Source: a virus
Taxonomy: Duplodnaviria > Caudoviricetes
DNA length: 64,000 nucleotides
IMG/VR virus record: IMGVR_UViG_3300033741_000108
Coordinates: 38,531-102,530 of that record
Strand: one strand, 5' to 3'
In this document: positions 28,064 through 49,941 of the stretch, one piece after another
Numbering within the stretch: position 1 is the first letter of the stretch
Layout: every line of letters starts with the position of its first letter
The notes under the pieces: model-generated
What the model was told of the DNA's origin: nothing
Databases searched by the model: none
The model's input: the letters and a program-made list of their open reading frames with translations, nothing else
Program-made: the position numbers and the translations under genes

Positions 28064-28947
28064 TATTGCTTATTTTCATATTGATAATAACATATAATAT
28101 CATATCAATATGTTAGGTTATCATCAATGATATTATACCATTATAACGTGTATATGACGATGTATAGACGTTTTCAAGCGTAAAAGGTATTCATACTATA
28201 GGTATAAAATAAAACGTGTATATGATACGTTTACAGGTGTTATAATGGTATGTAATTATATGATCTTATTTATTGTTATTATATTAATATTAATGATATA
28301 TGATAGTGATATACTGGACTGCTTTTTTAATTATTGATATCATTACTATATAAAACAGTCCAGTATGACATAACATATAATATCATTGATAGTAGTATAA
28401 TGATAGTAGTAGTAGTAGTATGATATATGTATAATGATATAGTAATACAGAAAATAAATACCATCGATGCAGCAATGAATATATATAATAGTAATATTAT
28501 TAATCAATGAATATTATCTAATCCCTGCAGCAAATGAGTATATATTATTATTATATGATAGTGATATATGTAATTGATTGGATATGATATATGTATATGT
28601 AGTGATATATGATAGTAGTAATATTATAGTATAGAATAAATATCTTAGTCATGCATCAATGGTATGATGTTTTATTATATATTAATATTATATGATATGG
28701 TATGATATCACGTTATTATATATGATATATGTTATATGTATTAATAATAATATACCCTTATTCAAGCGTGTATCACGTTGTAACGTGTATTTGTGATGTT
28801 ATAGGTGTATTAATAGTGTAGTATGATAATATGACGCTTAAGGTGGTATTATAGGTGGTGTAGGTGTATTATTATATAGTATGACGTTATATAGGTATGA
28901 TATTTTATTATGCATGTTATAACGTTTATGATATGCATGATGTGGGA

Positions 28948-42853: not shown

Positions 42854-42991
42854 AACTTTTCCTCCTTTTTATTCTTATTCTAACTTAATTATTATTATAC
42901 TATACTATATTACCTATGTCAAGAAAAAATATAAAATAATATTTGCAAACACTCAAATACTATGTTATAATACTTAGTAGGAGGTGTTAAT

Positions 42992-43394
42992 ATGAAACTT
43001 ATTGATTTTGTAAATAACGAAATGCAAGACTTCTCAAACTTTAGTGAAGATAGATTGTTTTGATCTTTTCGATTCAAGAATATTAAATGCTGTTCATGGT
43101 GACTTTAATAATTCAAAAGAATTATCTGAATATGTGATGAAAGATGGTGATAAAATATCACTTGCTCAATGTATAATAGAATATAAAGAAAGTAACACAT
43201 TACATATTGATTTTTTAAATTCAAATGTAAAAGATATATCTGGCTTATCAGAAAGAATAATTAATAATATACAGTCTGAGTTAGGTGATGTATTTAAGAT
43301 CGATGATTTAAAAAGTAATAGAAAGAATATTTCTGGGCTTGGTAAAAAGACAATGAATAATATAATTGAATATGCAGAAAGTAAAAAAGAGTAG
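42992..43394 (+). CDS. putative HhH DNA-binding protein interrupted by a +1 frameshift at TTT-TGA (43058-43063)
   Basis: Promoter and RBS aggaggtg at ATG 42992; 23 codons then TGA; +1 frame open to 43394; C-terminal ISGLGKKT...II. Confidence 0.6.
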
Positions 43395-43403
43395 GGAGGT
43401 ATT

Positions 43404-44045
43404 CTACTCTTTTTTTAATAGTTCTAATATATCTTTTAACAAGTGGTTTACTATTTTGTCAATATCTTTATTTATATTATTTTCATATTGTCTAAAATTA
43501 TTAACAAGTCCAATCATAATTCCAATATTCCATGCTAGTTTGTATCCATATAATTCACTTTTTATTTTTTTTATATCCAATGTATCTCTAAAATCAAATT
43601 CATTATCATCTTTTTTAGAATGCCTTTGAGATATTATATTTGGGTCACTATACAAATTTACACCTATATTAATTTTGATACCAAGTCTTTTATATATTCT
43701 TAATGAGTCATTAATTATTTTTTTTAAATTACACAAATCATCGTGCTCTATCCCTTGGTGAAAAATACTTGCAATAAATGATCTGTCTAGTAATACTATA
43801 TCACAATTAGAATTTATAACTTTTTCTGAAAGAAGTTTGACTCTGTCTTTATAAAAAATATTATAAGCATCTAAATAATTCAGTTCGCCAGATAACAAAA
43901 TATCTCTATTAACGTTATAAAATGGTTGTCTTAAAACGTCTACTGTAAGATTATTTTCTAATATTTTTTGTTTCATTTTTTTTATTATAGTTGACTTACC
44001 AACTCCATTAGCCCCATCTATAACTACTATAATTGGTTTTCTCAT
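43404..44045 (-). CDS. tmk: thymidylate (dNMP) kinase
   Basis: VIDGANGVGKST, RQP, VLLDRS..SI.HQG. Confidence 0.8.
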   Translation of the reverse strand: MRKPIIVVIDGANGVGKSTIIKKMKQKILENNLTVDVLRQPFYNVNRDILLSGELNYLDAYNIFYKDRVKLLSEKVINSNCDIVLLDRSFIASIFHQGIEHDDLCNLKKIINDSLRIYKRLGIKINIGVNLYSDPNIISQRHSKKDDNEFDFRDTLDIKKIKSELYGYKLAWNIGIMIGLVNNFRQYENNINKDIDKIVNHLLKDILELLKKE

Positions 44046-44362
44046 TCCACATTCACATCCAATCCTAATTTGCTCATAGTTTCTTTTATAAACTTTTTAG
44101 TTTCAACATAATGTTCACCATATTCTTCTAACATTTTACAATCATTATCACGCAAAGTCTTCTCATATAAACTATCAAATAAATACTCGGCTTTTGTTGG
44201 ATATGTCTTATCCTTAGAAGAAACTAAATATTTACCTTTCTTATCAGTTCTTACTTTTCCATTATCATCTAATAACATTTTAGCAACAGTATAACAATTG
44301 CTATCTGACGTTATTAGATATTTACTTTTTAAGTTTTTGGATTCTATAATAATTTCCATCAA
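44042..44362 (-). CDS. hypothetical phage protein
   Basis: YLITSDSNCY; RBS gaggag. Confidence 0.7.
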   Translation of the reverse strand: MMEIIIESKNLKSKYLITSDSNCYTVAKMLLDDNGKVRTDKKGKYLVSSKDKTYPTKAEYLFDSLYEKTLRDNDCKMLEEYGEHYVETKKFIKETMSKLGLDVNVE

Positions 44363-44365
44363 AGA

Positions 44366-44560
44366 TCACTCCTCTTCATTTTCTATTTCAAAAATAACTT
44401 TTTTCATTTTTACAAATTGATTTTCCTCTTTCATAAAACAGATTTTACATACGTTATAATTCCCAAATTTTGAAGCTACTAACTTTTTTGTCTTCTGGAA
44501 ACACCTATCACATCTTTTTCTTTCATAATTGTTAATAGTATTAAATGGTATAAATACCAT
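44366..44560 (-). CDS. small Zn-finger protein
   Basis: CDRC...CKIC. Confidence 0.65.
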   Translation of the reverse strand: MVFIPFNTINNYERKRCDRCFQKTKKLVASKFGNYNVCKICFMKEENQFVKMKKVIFEIENEEE

Positions 44561-44877
44561 TATAAATCACTCCTTTTATTCACAATAACTACTATATCAA
44601 CATCGTTTTCATTTGTTACCATGATGTACTGGTTACTTTTTAATTCACCCAATCCAATATCTTTAATCCTATTCGCCTCTGCTTCATCATAAACTCTTGG
44701 TGTAATAAAAAACTGTAATAATTCCTTTTGAAAAAAATCAAGATTAGTAGTACCTAAAAAGTTAATTTCTTTCAATAGTTCATCATATTTATCTTCACTC
44801 ATCTCAATATGAGATATTGAATAATTTGTTTTGGTTTTTACTATTACTATCTTTTCTAATATTTCGTTTAATACCAT
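44560..44877 (-). CDS. hypothetical protein
   Basis: RBS aaggag. Confidence 0.7.
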   Translation of the reverse strand: MVLNEILEKIVIVKTKTNYSISHIEMSEDKYDELLKEINFLGTTNLDFFQKELLQFFITPRVYDEAEANRIKDIGLGELKSNQYIMVTNENDVDIVVIVNKRSDL

Positions 44878-44907
44878 TTTGTTCAGCTCCTTTATTTTAA
44901 TTTTAGT

Positions 44908-45126
44908 TTAGTTTGTTAATAACATTAAGGGTATAATTATTGGTGCTGTAATTATAATAAATATTTTTATATTTTCCATTAAAAAGTTTTTAGAATTTGT
45001 AATTGCATTAATAAAAGTATTTTCAAAATCATAAAATTCTACCACAAATATTGTCCAAAATATAAATAATAATGATAACAACATACAAAAAATATACGTT
45101 ATTAATGCTAATATAAAGTCAATCAT
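44908..45126 (-). CDS. small 2-TM protein
   Basis: RBS gaggagg; hydrophobic. Confidence 0.7.
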   Translation of the reverse strand: MIDFILALITYIFCMLLSLLFIFWTIFVVEFYDFENTFINAITNSKNFLMENIKIFIIITAPIIIPLMLLTN

Positions 45127-45258
45127 TTTATCCTCCTCTATAGTTTTATCTGCTATGTCCTCTGTACTTATAATTATATCATACTATTATATAATTGTCA
45201 ATGATTATTTGTATTTATTTTTATGTGCTGCTATTTAATATTATATCACTCCAAAACT

Positions 45259-46563
45259 TTAATCTATTTTTATCAACTTATTAGTCAACTTATTGTAATC
45301 TTTTACGTAATTATCGTTAAACCTTACTTTATCTGTGAATTTACTCATCAAATCATCTAATTTACTATTATCATAATCCTTGAATTTATCTCTAATATCT
45401 ATGTGCCTTTCTTCAGCACGTTTTTTTATTTGGTATACAATTAGGTCGTTTATATCCTTCATATTAAAATTTAACACACTATCTTCATTTCTCAACATAT
45501 TAGCAATTAAATCTATATTGTATGTTATTTGTGTTTTATAATTTATATCAATAACATGAATATTATAAAATAAAATTTCGTTATCCTCAATCACATTAAA
45601 TAGCATATCTTTTAAAACTTTATTTATTTCTTTATAAAAACTACTCAACCTATAATCTTTTGATCCTTCTATTTTTGATTTAATTGCAAATCTATACCAA
45701 TTAATATTATCGTAACTATCAAATCCAATATTAAATATTTCGCTATATTTATCTAATACTCTTCGTTCAGCAGTTTGATAATAAGACTCTATACTTTTTA
45801 ATTTATTCTTTATATCAACACCTTTTAAAGAACCATTTACTAATATATCTTTATAACTTGTTGTTTCTATTCTATCAGTAATATCGTCTAATTGTTCTTT
45901 GCTTAATATTTTCAGTGTCTCTTTACTTGTATTTTTATGTCCTTGTTTTAAAACCCTCCTATCAATATTATAATCAATAAATGGTGTCTCAAATATATAT
46001 TCTATTGCACCTTGATTCTTTAAATCATTGAGAGAGTCTTTTAAGTTTTTAGTGAGTTTATTTCTAACCATTGACATAAATTCATATGTTGCGTTTACAT
46101 TGTTTAATTCTACATCGACATTATCTGCTAGAAACTTTGTAGGGGAATATTGATATTTCTTAAATAGATTATTGAATGTCTTTAAATCAAATAATAACTC
46201 ATTCTTTGGAATTAAAACTACATAATCACCATCGTTTATTTTTACCCTTTTATAATTCTCTGTTAAAAGTTTTAATATTCCCAAATTCATTATACCTTTT
46301 AATGTATTAATATCTAAAAAAACTTTATCATCTGGTATATTAATTCTTTTAAATAAATATTTTCTACCATCCATATTTACTTGTTCAGTATATTTTTCTA
46401 AATATTCATCAATTATCTTGCCAGAGTTACCTTTATTTTTGCTTTCTGGTAATCCCATATAACTAATAACTTCCTTTCTATTCTTATATACCTTATCTAA
46501 TTCTAAATTCTTAATACATTTTACAATTGTTTTCTCATTTAATCTTTCAAACTTATTTTTAAT
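45259..46563 (-). CDS. hypothetical protein, putative DNA-binding, paralog of 30044; probable ATT start
   Basis: KVYKNRKEVISYMGL..KGNS; RBS aaggag 9 nt before in-frame ATT. Confidence 0.75.
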   Translation of the reverse strand: MKNKFERLNEKTIVKCIKNLELDKVYKNRKEVISYMGLPESKNKGNSGKIIDEYLEKYTEQVNMDGRKYLFKRINIPDDKVFLDINTLKGIMNLGILKLLTENYKRVKINDGDYVVLIPKNELLFDLKTFNNLFKKYQYSPTKFLADNVDVELNNVNATYEFMSMVRNKLTKNLKDSLNDLKNQGAIEYIFETPFIDYNIDRRVLKQGHKNTSKETLKILSKEQLDDITDRIETTSYKDILVNGSLKGVDIKNKLKSIESYYQTAERRVLDKYSEIFNIGFDSYDNINWYRFAIKSKIEGSKDYRLSSFYKEINKVLKDMLFNVIEDNEILFYNIHVIDINYKTQITYNIDLIANMLRNEDSVLNFNMKDINDLIVYQIKKRAEERHIDIRDKFKDYDNSKLDDLMSKFTDKVRFNDNYVKDYNKLTNKLIKID

Positions 46564-46999
46564 AACATCACTCTCCTTGATAATATACTTTAGATAACTG
46601 CCACTTACATAAACTATTATATCATACAATGATTAATTTGTCAAAAATTATTTATATATATATCAAGTTAGCTAAAGTAATAGGTCTAACTGGAGTTCTT
46701 TTAAACCACCCAAATAAGTTCTCCTATTGACCTAGAAGTTTAGCTAACTCAAAAATCAGCTAAATAATCTTCACGTGTGATAGTATAACTGATATCTAAA
46801 GTATCACACTTAGACACTCCCTCTCAATAAATAATATTATCATGCAGACAAAGCTTTAGCTTTGGATGCGACAAACAGCTTTGCTGTGCGTCAGGGTCTT
46901 CTTTATAAAGAGCAAGTTCAAAGTCAAAACACTTATCCTAGTGCAAAGAGCAGCACTAGGATAAATATATTCCTTTATTACCACCCACAAATCTAATTT

Positions 47000-47028
47000 T
47001 TGACATTAGAGTTATTGTATGATATAAT
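47000..47028 (+). promoter_or_regulatory. consensus SigA promoter
   Basis: TTGACA-17-TATAAT with TG. Confidence 0.8.
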
Positions 47029-47185
47029 ATAATTAATAGATGATATTGTTAATATAATGTATTGGAGATGATATTTATTGGTGACGAACACTATACAGAA
47101 GGAAATAGTTATCACAGAGTAATTAATAGTTTTGTGTATTTCAATGAGAGTATTAAAAAGGTAGATACCTAAAAGGAGGTGTATT

Positions 47186-47410
47186 ATGAAAAACTTTAAA
47201 TTAGCAGAGAATGATATTGATGATATTTTAGATAAATTAGATGATGGTATTACAAATGAACTAGAAAGACTAGATCACGTTATGTTATTATTAGATGCAC
47301 ATGATGATTTAGTTGATGCCTATGTGTCTGGTGAAATGATTGGTTGGGAAACTGACGATGATATCGAGGATCTTTTTAACAAGCTAGATAAATATATTGG
47401 AGCTGAATAA
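47186..47410 (+). CDS. small highly acidic protein
   Basis: RBS aggaggtg; D/E-rich. Confidence 0.75.
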   Translation: MKNFKLAENDIDDILDKLDDGITNELERLDHVMLLLDAHDDLVDAYVSGEMIGWETDDDIEDLFNKLDKYIGAE

Positions 47411-47425
47411 GAGGAGATGGTTTAA

Positions 47426-48830
47426 ATTAATGTAAAAGTTAATTTTATAGGAGAGAGTCATGAGGTTGTTAGTGGTAGCATGACTTTAGTTGAATATGGT
47501 GATAAGAGAATGCTTATAGAAGCTGGGATGACTCAATCAAATGATATGAAGACAAACTATATAAAGAATAAGCGAATGGTTGAAGAATCTAAGCCAAGCA
47601 CATTGGACTTTGTTTTTTTGATGCATTCGCATGCCTGATCATATTGGTTTAGTACCAGCACTTATTGCAAATGGGTTTGATGGTAAAATATATATACCAA
47701 GACACTCCAAACAAATAATGAGAGATATGTTGTATGATGGAGCTTATCTAGCAGGTAGGACTGCTTACTGCTTATCTACAAATAAAAAAGAATATGATGC
47801 ATTATATACTAATCATGATGTGAATATGGCATTAAATATGGTTGTTGAGTTAGATGATGTTAGAACTAATATAGATGATAATATATCTATTGAGTTATTT
47901 GATAGTGGTCATATATTATTAGCTAAACAAGCGTTATTTTATTTTAAAGATAATATGAATGAAAAGAAATTGTTATATACATCTGACTTAGGTGATAAGT
48001 CTATAAAAAATAGCTTTGCAAATAAATTGCAGCATATTAACCATGCAGATATTGTAATTTCAGAGAGTACTTACGCAGATATAGATAGAAAAGATATTGA
48101 AAGAGATAGAAAAAAAGATTTATCCAAACTTAGGAATATAATTAAACATAATAAAAAGGTAATAATACCAGCATTTTCATTAAGTCGTTCACAAAATATA
48201 TTAATTGATTTATATGATATGTATAAGGATGACACTAATTTTAATAAAAGAGTTATAGTTGATAGTCCACTTACTCAGAAAGTGTTTAATAATTATCTAA
48301 AAATATTAGAGGATACAAAACAATTTGATAAATATAATAAGTTATCTAGTGCAATAGAGTGGTATAATGTTAAATTTACTAGGAATGTGAAGGAGTCTAA
48401 ATCATTAATAGCTAAAGATATGCCACAGGTTATTATAACAAGTAGTGGTATGTTACAAGGTGGTAGAAGTGTATTCTGGACAAAGAGTATTATTAACAGA
48501 AATGATTGTGCAATAGTACTCTCTGGATATCAAGGTGTAGACACATTAGGATATAAAATAAAAAATTGGGATAGAATGAAAATAGATATAGATGATGAGA
48601 TATATGATTTTAAAGTTGAAGTAGATAGCTTGGATAGTTATTCTTCACATATACAGTATAATAGTTTATTAAAATATCTATCAAATATAAATAGTAACGA
48701 AGTATATTTACATCATGGTGATCATAATAATAAAGTAGAATTTTCAAAAGTATTAAAGCAGGAATATGAGAATAAATTTAAGACTACAAAAGTAATACCA
48801 ACTAGAAAAGATATGATAGTAGAATTTTAG
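47426..48830 (+). CDS. MBL-fold beta-CASP nuclease split by a +1 frameshift inside HxHxDH
   Basis: Frame A from ATT 47426: NVKVNFIG..VSGS..LIEAG..DFVFLMHSHA-TGA; frame B: DHIG, SGHIL, YTSDLG, SESTY, IPAFSLSRSQ, SSGMLQGG, YSSH, HHGD. Confidence 0.85.
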
Positions 48831-48854
48831 TATTGTAAATAATTAAATTAATTT

Positions 48855-48883
48855 TTGACAACTGTATAATAGTGTGATATAAT
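48855..48883 (+). promoter_or_regulatory. consensus SigA promoter for the tRNA/ncRNA cluster
   Basis: TTGACA-17-TATAAT with TG. Confidence 0.8.
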
Positions 48884-49336
48884 GGGTTTATAGTAAGAAG
48901 TTGAAGAAACTTAATTTTGTTTCTTTTCTGCGTTAAGTAATTGGATTTTGGTTGGTCACAATTTCTTAGCTAATTTAATAGAAGATTTATGTTAATCTGT
49001 ATTAGGGTTTATACAGTAAAAATAATTAAACCCATTTAATTTTAACATAAACAGTATTATAAGTATAAAAACCCTTTGGCGGACACCAAAGGGAAACATA
49101 GTTTATTTTTTATACAAAGTGATTAAAGTGAATAATTTATATTAACAAAAACTTTAGCTGACACTAAAGTGGAATAATGATTTATTTTTTATACAAAGTA
49201 ATTAAATACTAGGTCACAGTAAACCTTTTCTGAAATTGCTGAAACGTATTGCAACGTTCATTGCTTAACACAAAATACAAATCAATGACATAATTTTGTG
49301 GCGAAATTACCAGTTCTTTTTTATGTCATTAAATAT

Positions 49337-49411
49337 CTAGATGTGGGAGAGTGGTTATCCGCAAGCTTTGGGAGCTTGTCTACGCAAATTCAAATTTTGC
49401 CATCTAGACCA
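49337..49411 (+). tRNA. tRNA-Pro(UGG)
   Basis: acceptor ctagatg/catctag; anticodon arm caagc-tttggga-gcttg; CCA. Confidence 0.88.
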
Positions 49412-49465
49412 ATAGAGCTTGGGATGCCTATCGAAGAAGCAGACTAGCCCAAGCCATTTATATAA

Positions 49466-49542
49466 TGCGGGGTGGCGTGTTGGGTCGCCAATGAGGTTCA
49501 TATCCTTATCTACGCTGATTCGATTTCAGCCCACCGCATCCA
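49466..49542 (+). tRNA. tRNA-Met(CAU), initiator-like acceptor stem
   Basis: tgcgggg acceptor; tgagg-ttcatat-cctta; TTCGATT; CCA. Confidence 0.85.
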
Positions 49543-49661
49543 ATAAACATGTGAATAAAGGTTTATATTAGCAATACCACAAACCAAAAACCTTGAGCCT
49601 TAAATTGGCGACAGACCATTAGGTAATTCTATAGGAGCGTTGTTAGGTGGTATAAAAATAA

Positions 49662-49739
49662 GCGAGAATAGCTCAATTAGGCTAGAGCCTCTGGTTTCCA
49701 ACCAGAATGTTGTGAGTTCGATTCTCACTTCTCGTTCCA
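49662..49739 (+). tRNA. tRNA-Gly(UCC)
   Basis: tctgg-tttccaa-ccaga; TTCGATT; U73; CCA. Confidence 0.92.
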
Positions 49740-49744
49740 AATAT

Positions 49745-49827
49745 GGAAGTCTAAACTTAAATCACTAGGGAAGTGAATTGGTCTCCAAAACCAATGTTAA
49801 TGCGTTCAACTCGTAAGATTTCTGCCA
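49745..49827 (+). tRNA. tRNA-Trp(CCA), atypical long D-arm
   Basis: ttggt-ctccaaa-accaa; acceptor ggaagtc/gatttct; GCCA. Confidence 0.75.
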
Positions 49828-49865
49828 ATATTATGAATAAGGTTAAAAAATAATAATTCTAATAA

Positions 49866-49941
49866 TGGAGCATAGTTCAGTTGGTAGAACAATCGGCTGT
49901 TAACCGATAGGTCAAGAGTTTAAATCTCTTTGCTCCAGCCA
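49866..49941 (+). tRNA. tRNA-Asn(GUU)
   Basis: atcgg-ctgttaa-ccgat; tggagca/tgctcca; GCCA; T-loop tttaaat. Confidence 0.88.

Follow-up and report, generated by a model that had tools for sequence, protein, structure and literature searches.

To our knowledge, bacteria and phages have few +1 frameshift sites that are well supported, namely prfB and a handful of phage structural genes. Here we describe two +1 reading-frame breaks, one in a gene for a helix-hairpin-helix (HhH) protein (site 1) and one in a gene for a beta-CASP nuclease (site 2), in a virus of the Caudoviricetes (IMG/VR record IMGVR_UViG_3300033741_000108), whose genome is a single contig of 102,530 bp with 28.2% GC; the window, by which we mean the whole 64,000 nt stretch of DNA analysed, is its final 64 kb. 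Precedents for shifting at an Ala or Ser codon followed by UGA are found in antizyme genes (GCG_UGA_C and UCC_UGA_U), alongside the CCC_UGA of Listeria phage tail genes, and “corrective” or “compensatory” frameshifting is a described class (PMC5009743). TTT-TGA is a natural prfB shift site in some low-GC bacteria, where a Shine-Dalgarno (SD)-like element accompanies it and the stop is followed by C (bioRxiv 10.1101/2024.09.24.614795). Both of the phage breaks are real; that at site 2 is conserved and under selection, that at site 1 is not conserved, and obvious trans-acting factors are absent. The reading that we favour, with about even confidence, is that site 2 is a conserved break read by a +1 shift and site 1 a recent one, the two having arisen as independent single-base duplications; the frameshift itself, its efficiency and the resulting trans-frame protein are predicted from sequence.

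Both breaks lie on the plus strand, and in each a stop codon stands directly 3′ of the shift codon and the skipping of one base rebuilds the protein with zero residues lost. At site 1 (TTG-TTT-TGA-TC, 43055-43065; shift context TTT-TGA-T, 43058-43064) an open reading frame (ORF) starting at ATG 42992, behind the strong ribosome-binding site (RBS) AGGAGGTG (42979-42986), runs for 23 codons and ends TTG-TTT-TGA (42992-43063; TGA at 43061-43063, TC next), and from GAT 43062 the +1 frame is open for a further 110 codons, up to 43394, with no RBS of its own. At site 2 (CAT-GCC-TGA-TC, 47630-47640; shift context GCC-TGA-T, 47633-47639) the 70 codons of frame 0 (47426-47638) end CAT-TCG-CAT-GCC-TGA (TGA at 47636-47638, TC next) and the +1 frame takes over at GAT 47637 for 397 codons, up to 48830. 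The earlier note on this DNA had reported two NNN-TGA-TC breaks resuming at GAT as the only breaks that it found, and in this it was borne out: the positions are exact, both are genuine +1 breaks at an in-frame UGA, and a scan of the whole 102,530 bp for an RBS-led ORF, a stop and then a long RBS-less ORF in a shifted frame gave sites 1 and 2 as the sole clean cases. The other rows of the scan were ordinary ATGA-type overlaps or small ORFs nested within longer genes; candidates at genome positions 12366 and 28740 were inspected and are not frame breaks. TGATC stands in frame at both breaks and at one normal gene end (44364), and nowhere else. Reassignment of TGA (codes 4 or 25) was ruled out, as 19 of the 151 ORFs end in TGA (94 in TAA and 38 in TAG) and frame 0 past either TGA soon meets stops.

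The break at site 2 falls within HxHxDH, the catalytic motif of a beta-CASP nuclease of the CPSF73/TTHA0252 type. The downstream ORF alone holds the D-H of this motif and the Beta-Casp and RMMBL domains, and the Pfam domain Lactamase_B, which spans the break (residues 14-109), is matched only by the read-through form of the protein (P0127, with GCCT read as one step), neither half matching alone. P0127 scored 34.6 bits for Lactamase_B (cut-off 22.7), 75.5 for Beta-Casp (27.7) and 31.1 for RMMBL (21.6); the full set of beta-CASP features, a metallo-beta-lactamase (MBL) domain with HxHxDH, the further H/D motifs, Beta-Casp and RMMBL, is present only after the one-base skip. Aligned with 15 unbroken homologs (440-564 aa), P0127 is gap-free through H-S-H-A-D-H and keeps every invariant H and D (H67, D71, H72, H162, D187, H408 and H430 being invariant in the alignment and H69 nearly so), and a profile of P0127 and its homologs matched 2dkf_A (Thermus thermophilus TTHA0252) over its whole length with an E-value of 1.9e-89, followed by CPSF73 and Integrator-11. 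Annotation pipelines split the gene into ORFs of 52 and 399 aa and miss the MBL domain.

The break at site 2 is conserved in the one known relative, with purifying selection in the respective frames on its two sides, as would be expected of a recoding site. A JGI metagenome contig (L001), 94.4% identical with no gaps, carries the identical CATGCCTGATCAT at site 2, and a saline-spring Logan contig, probably of the same sample, covers the region with 20 substitutions and no gap. Nei-Gojobori counts between the window and L001, made for each segment and frame, gave 15 synonymous changes and 1 non-synonymous change in frame 0 over the 70 codons before the break (pN/pS 0.015), and 54.5 and 13.5 respectively in frame +1 over the 397 codons after it (pN/pS 0.057), with values of 2 to 3.5 for either segment in the wrong frames. 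The break is common to the two lineages, which now differ by a pS of ~0.25-0.38, so selection has acted on the nuclease gene in its broken form, which indicates that this gene is functional and is neither a pseudogene nor an error. Given the strong purifying selection on both halves, production of the full-length beta-CASP nuclease presumably has to continue. Close relatives were found neither in IMG/VR (by protein patterns) nor in INPHARED (by megablast), and a search of JGI metagenome contigs likewise yielded none, the known lineages being the window and the JGI relative only; tblastn against phages gave only matches of 36% identity or less. Homologs at 35-39% identity are all single unbroken ORFs.

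It is highly improbable that the breaks are sequencing or assembly errors, or that the two genes are dead pseudogenes. A frameshift in a phage genome assembled from a metagenome is often an error, and the broken copies of the site-1 gene are all 100% identical, so that selection on it after the break is not measurable, but the same bases are present in several short-read assemblies and studies and the pN/pS values across site 2 are unlike those of a pseudogene common to both lineages. ENA MEGAHIT and Logan contigs, the latter from other brine runs, match the window at 100% identity over both sites. For site 1, this form recurs unchanged (100%) in the ENA contig (102,528 bp) and in Logan contigs from two further runs, and contigs of run X3 span both sites with 0 differences and 0 gaps. 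The runs carrying window positions 42900-48900 are all brine or saline-spring metagenomes from several studies, mostly holding one 100% identical strain. Miscalling of GATC in long reads, against which the earlier note had cautioned, can be dismissed as the explanation because both breaks are present in short-read assemblies from other brine runs.

How readily such breaks arise by chance was estimated by simulating all single-base duplications in the ORFs of this phage. A stop with no aberrant residue before it was produced by 11.7% of the duplications, a TGA by 4.0% and TGATC by 0.054%. Given the 4.0% rate, two clean TGA breaks are unlikely as unselected mutations. The “TC” that follows TGA is a post hoc match, and at site 2 its C is dictated by the D-H motif, being part of the His codon. 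That two of two sites are clean TGA sites suggests a survivorship filter, whereby indels persist where the ribosome stalls at the lesion and can step +1.

On our favoured reading the two duplications would be independent and of different age, with GCT-GAT becoming GCC-TGA-T in the nuclease gene and TTT-GAT becoming TTT-TGA-T in the HhH gene, and each would happen to put UGA exactly at the shift point to form a “shifty stop”; the site-2 break would be older than the split of the two known lineages. At site 2 the ribosome would pause where the rare GCC holds peptidyl-tRNA-Ala and UGA occupies the A site, and a fraction of the paused ribosomes would accept Asp-tRNA on the +1 GAU to give H-S-H-A-D-H, the predicted trans-frame junction peptide including LMHSHADHIGLVPAL / LDFVFLMHSHADHIGLVPALIANGFDGK. 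GCC is the rarest Ala codon of the phage (48 of 1078) and GAT the commonest of all its codons (2034 of 29,997). As no stimulator is visible, the yield of the shift at site 2 is probably low, and a low yield together with a weak AUU start would fit a deliberately throttled nuclease. Transcriptional slippage on the T7 run at 47613-47619 was ruled out, since loss of one U or gain of two gives TTT-TGA at once.

Several observations weigh against this reading. The 20 nt 5′ of each site contain no purine-rich SD-like run, 3′ RNA structure was not significant against shuffled sequences at either (z from -0.2 to +1.1), the base after UGA is U at both sites and not the weak-termination C of prfB, and at site 2 re-pairing from GCC is precluded because tRNA-Ala does not read CCU. 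The known lineages number only two, and TGATC appears in only ~1.3% of the clean TGA-creating duplications, which is unexplained if the two events were fully independent. There is also the possibility, which we consider real though rather unlikely, that site 2 marks a split gene, in which translation would stop at UGA 47636 and restart at AUG 47631 (ATGCCTGA) to make an active nuclease in two pieces, a 70-aa N fragment (...HSHA) and a 399-aa C fragment (MPDHIG...). The candidate restart codon (ATG, 47631-47633) is in the +1 frame with an 8-nt overlap with the stop and is conserved in L001, and a split gene explains the purifying selection on both pieces equally well. This ATG is created by CAT together with the Ala at x of H-x-D-H, a residue found in the window protein alone among the 16 aligned proteins. 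However, no SD-like sequence stands ahead of ATG 47631, though one precedes ~136 of the 151 phage ORFs; the cut would separate the metal ligands H69 and D71 and place free termini in the active site (as judged from the known MBL fold), and when short N-fragment ORFs were searched for in other lineages only the window's own was found. Sequence alone does not separate a +1 shift from a split gene at this site.

The start of the nuclease gene also departs from the usual. Its ORF lacks an in-frame ATG where the protein truly begins, and homology together with three synonymous-only changes places the likely start at a non-AUG codon, ATT 47426, which lies 8 nt past AGAGGAGA (RBS and ATT, 47410-47428) and upstream of ATG 47480. 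In the distant homologs (~35% identity) L009 (70-90), L010 (1365-1385), L013 (330-350) and L014 (355-375) an SD is followed by ATT (ATA in L014) with no ATG, and a fifth, L015, has ATG, so that the weak start codon may be conserved; ATT or ATA starts lead gene callers to truncate these nuclease proteins. Together, a weak start and a frame break would fit a nuclease held at very low dosage. A minimal start-stop ORF, ATG-TAA, lies at 47430-47435, 13 nt past AGAGGAGA and out of frame with the overlapping ATT-started frame; skipping its TA would yield M-K-V-N-F, the consensus N-terminus of the homologs. Perfect 12/12 matches to the sigma-70 promoter consensus with an extended -10 TG occur at three places, 46616-46644 (minus strand), 47000-47028 (plus) and 48855-48883 (plus). 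That at 47000-47028 (TTGACA-17-TATAAT with TG), assigned by its match to the consensus, precedes a putative operon of a 74-aa gene and the nuclease gene, and another of the three precedes the tRNA cluster. In the phages of L009, L010-L012, L013 and L014 a ClpP-like protease gene follows the nuclease gene, as does a Metallophos/YonJ_N gene in L009-L012; in the window it is the tRNA cluster that comes next.

The gene at site 1 is a lone plus-strand unit with a promoter-like site of its own (TTGCAA-17-TATAAT with TG, 42943-42971, by consensus match), and two HhH-like motifs in the +1-frame part of its product come from weak Pfam HHH_3 matches and feature-search leads only. Conservation of the breaks in related phages, to which the earlier note had looked, holds for site 2 and fails here: contig L002, of the same JGI sample as L001 and ~93% identical, has an intact 133-aa ORF at site 1 (P0126), the first 23 residues of which match the frame-0 part in the window. 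L002 reads TTG-TTT-GAG-TTA where the window reads TTG-TTT-T-GAT-CTT, with T3 in place of the T4 run at 43058-43061, and the read-through of the window matches DRLF|ELFES of the intact relative, which indicates that the window strain carries a T3-to-T4 insertion. Between the window and the relative the gene has 11 synonymous and 16 non-synonymous changes (pN/pS 0.32). Site 1 thus appears to be a recent strain-specific frameshift mutation in a shift-prone context, UUU_U being a sequence on which tRNA-Phe is able to re-pair in the +1 frame. A plain recent knock-out is possible, or the gene may be leaky, with some rescue by tRNA-Phe slipping from UUU to UUU on U-UUU-GA.

The earlier note had proposed that one UGA-dependent +1 system, driven by limiting RF2 or by a phage factor, switches on both the nuclease and a DNA-binding protein (the HhH protein of site 1) through NNN-UGA-UC. 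We consider such a shared system very unlikely. Two clean UGA-UC sites that both resume at GAU would be rare among random duplications, and of the 12 bases on the 3′ side of the site-1 insertion, 4 differ between the window and the relative, which creates the GATC. Against this, the relative that keeps site 2 has an intact site 1, the sites share no sequence beyond TGATC and no stimulators, and a U following UGA is not known to weaken termination. Nor was a release factor or other such phage factor recovered, as the phage genome has no RF-1 or PCRF domain (PF00472 and PF03462; no match at E<=1). The absence of a frameshift-suppressor tRNA, already remarked upon in the window, was confirmed over the whole genome using ARAGORN, which found normal anticodon loops throughout the four or five, ordinary, tRNAs (Pro(TGG), Met(CAT), Gly(TCC), Asn(GTT) and a weak Trp(CCA)). 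No phage-encoded factor links both sites, and the case for two sites under one system, resting as it does on coincidence, is largely undone by the intact site-1 gene of the relative. Rfam at gathering thresholds gave two tRNAs and no frameshift element. Within 49337-49941 the Rfam tRNA model reached its gathering score for Gly and Asn only, with Pro(TGG) and Met(CAT) falling below it, and Trp(CCA), at about 49752-49823, emerges only at a lowered ARAGORN threshold.

A bolder proposal, which we regard as doubtful, is that GCC_UGA_U is an evolved, stimulator-free recoding site that would form, with the family-conserved AUU/AUA start, a double gate (RF2 and IF3) on a potentially toxic ribonuclease and so sense takeover of host translation, with UGA-UC having arisen again at site 1 as the host terminates poorly at UGAUC.

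Other features of the genome may be recorded here. Some 140 nt at the start of the contig are repeated at its end, and the assembly is therefore circular. Short palindromes are strongly depleted genome-wide, GATC being seen 100 times against 247 expected and TCGA 68 against 247, while GGCC, CCGG and GCGC are seen 2, 2 and 1 times in the whole genome where ~36 are expected; this suggests pressure by host restriction systems. Genome positions 28600-28870, before the window and immediately 5′ of a 287-aa ORF without a good RBS, are locally GC-richer, have stops in every frame and could be a structured RNA or an intron.

Site 2 is a good candidate for obligatory +1 decoding, or for a split enzyme, in a phage beta-CASP ribonuclease. 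As a frameshift site it would lie in the gene of an enzyme whose metal-binding motif is completed only by the shift, at a non-slippery Ala codon with no known stimulator, a geometry for which the documented cases are as yet mostly eukaryotic (antizyme and Ty3). If this is confirmed, +1 shifting driven by a stop codon would be seen to operate in a bacterial host with no need of re-pairing, and phages to keep such indels fixed over long times.

Compared with prfB (RF2, CUU_UGA_C), both phage sites are alike in having UGA right after the shift codon and an Asp codon at which decoding resumes with no residue lost, and site 1 shares the UUU-to-UUU re-pairing geometry of the TTT_TGA variant of prfB. 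Unlike prfB, both lack an AGGGGG-like internal SD and have U rather than C after UGA, the GCC of site 2 is non-slippery, and the genes encode a nuclease and an HhH protein with no obvious feedback loop. GCC_UGA_U at site 2 has the same layout as antizyme (UCC_UGA_U; GCG_UGA_C in yeast) and the GCG_AGU_U of Ty3, with a non-re-pairing Ser or Ala codon, UGA and a +1 GAU, and in antizyme and Ty3 the shift proceeds without re-pairing of the peptidyl-tRNA (PMC5009743); those systems, however, are eukaryotic, with polyamine sensing and known modulators, and nothing comparable was found in the phage. The tail-shaft gene of Listeria phages PSA, A118 and A500 (CCC_UGA) likewise shows a phage +1 shift at the codon before UGA (PMC5009743), but there the shift makes a C-terminal extension of a structural protein, giving two products, whereas at site 2 it would be obligatory for the catalytic motif. 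As an enzyme, the nuclease resembles the TTHA0252/CPSF73-type ribonucleases in its Beta-Casp, RMMBL and Lactamase_B domains and in its whole-length profile match, and differs in that the solved enzymes are single unbroken ORFs. For the evolutionary history that we propose at both sites, the nearest parallel is compensatory (“savior indel”) frameshifting, as in the G-run of the herpesvirus TK gene and in endosymbiont and mitochondrial genes, in which the indel is kept and low-level shifting yields enough product (PMC5009743). Those cases are mostly of homopolymer runs or hungry sense codons, whereas in the phage the indel itself brings a stop codon to the site at which the ribosome would shift.

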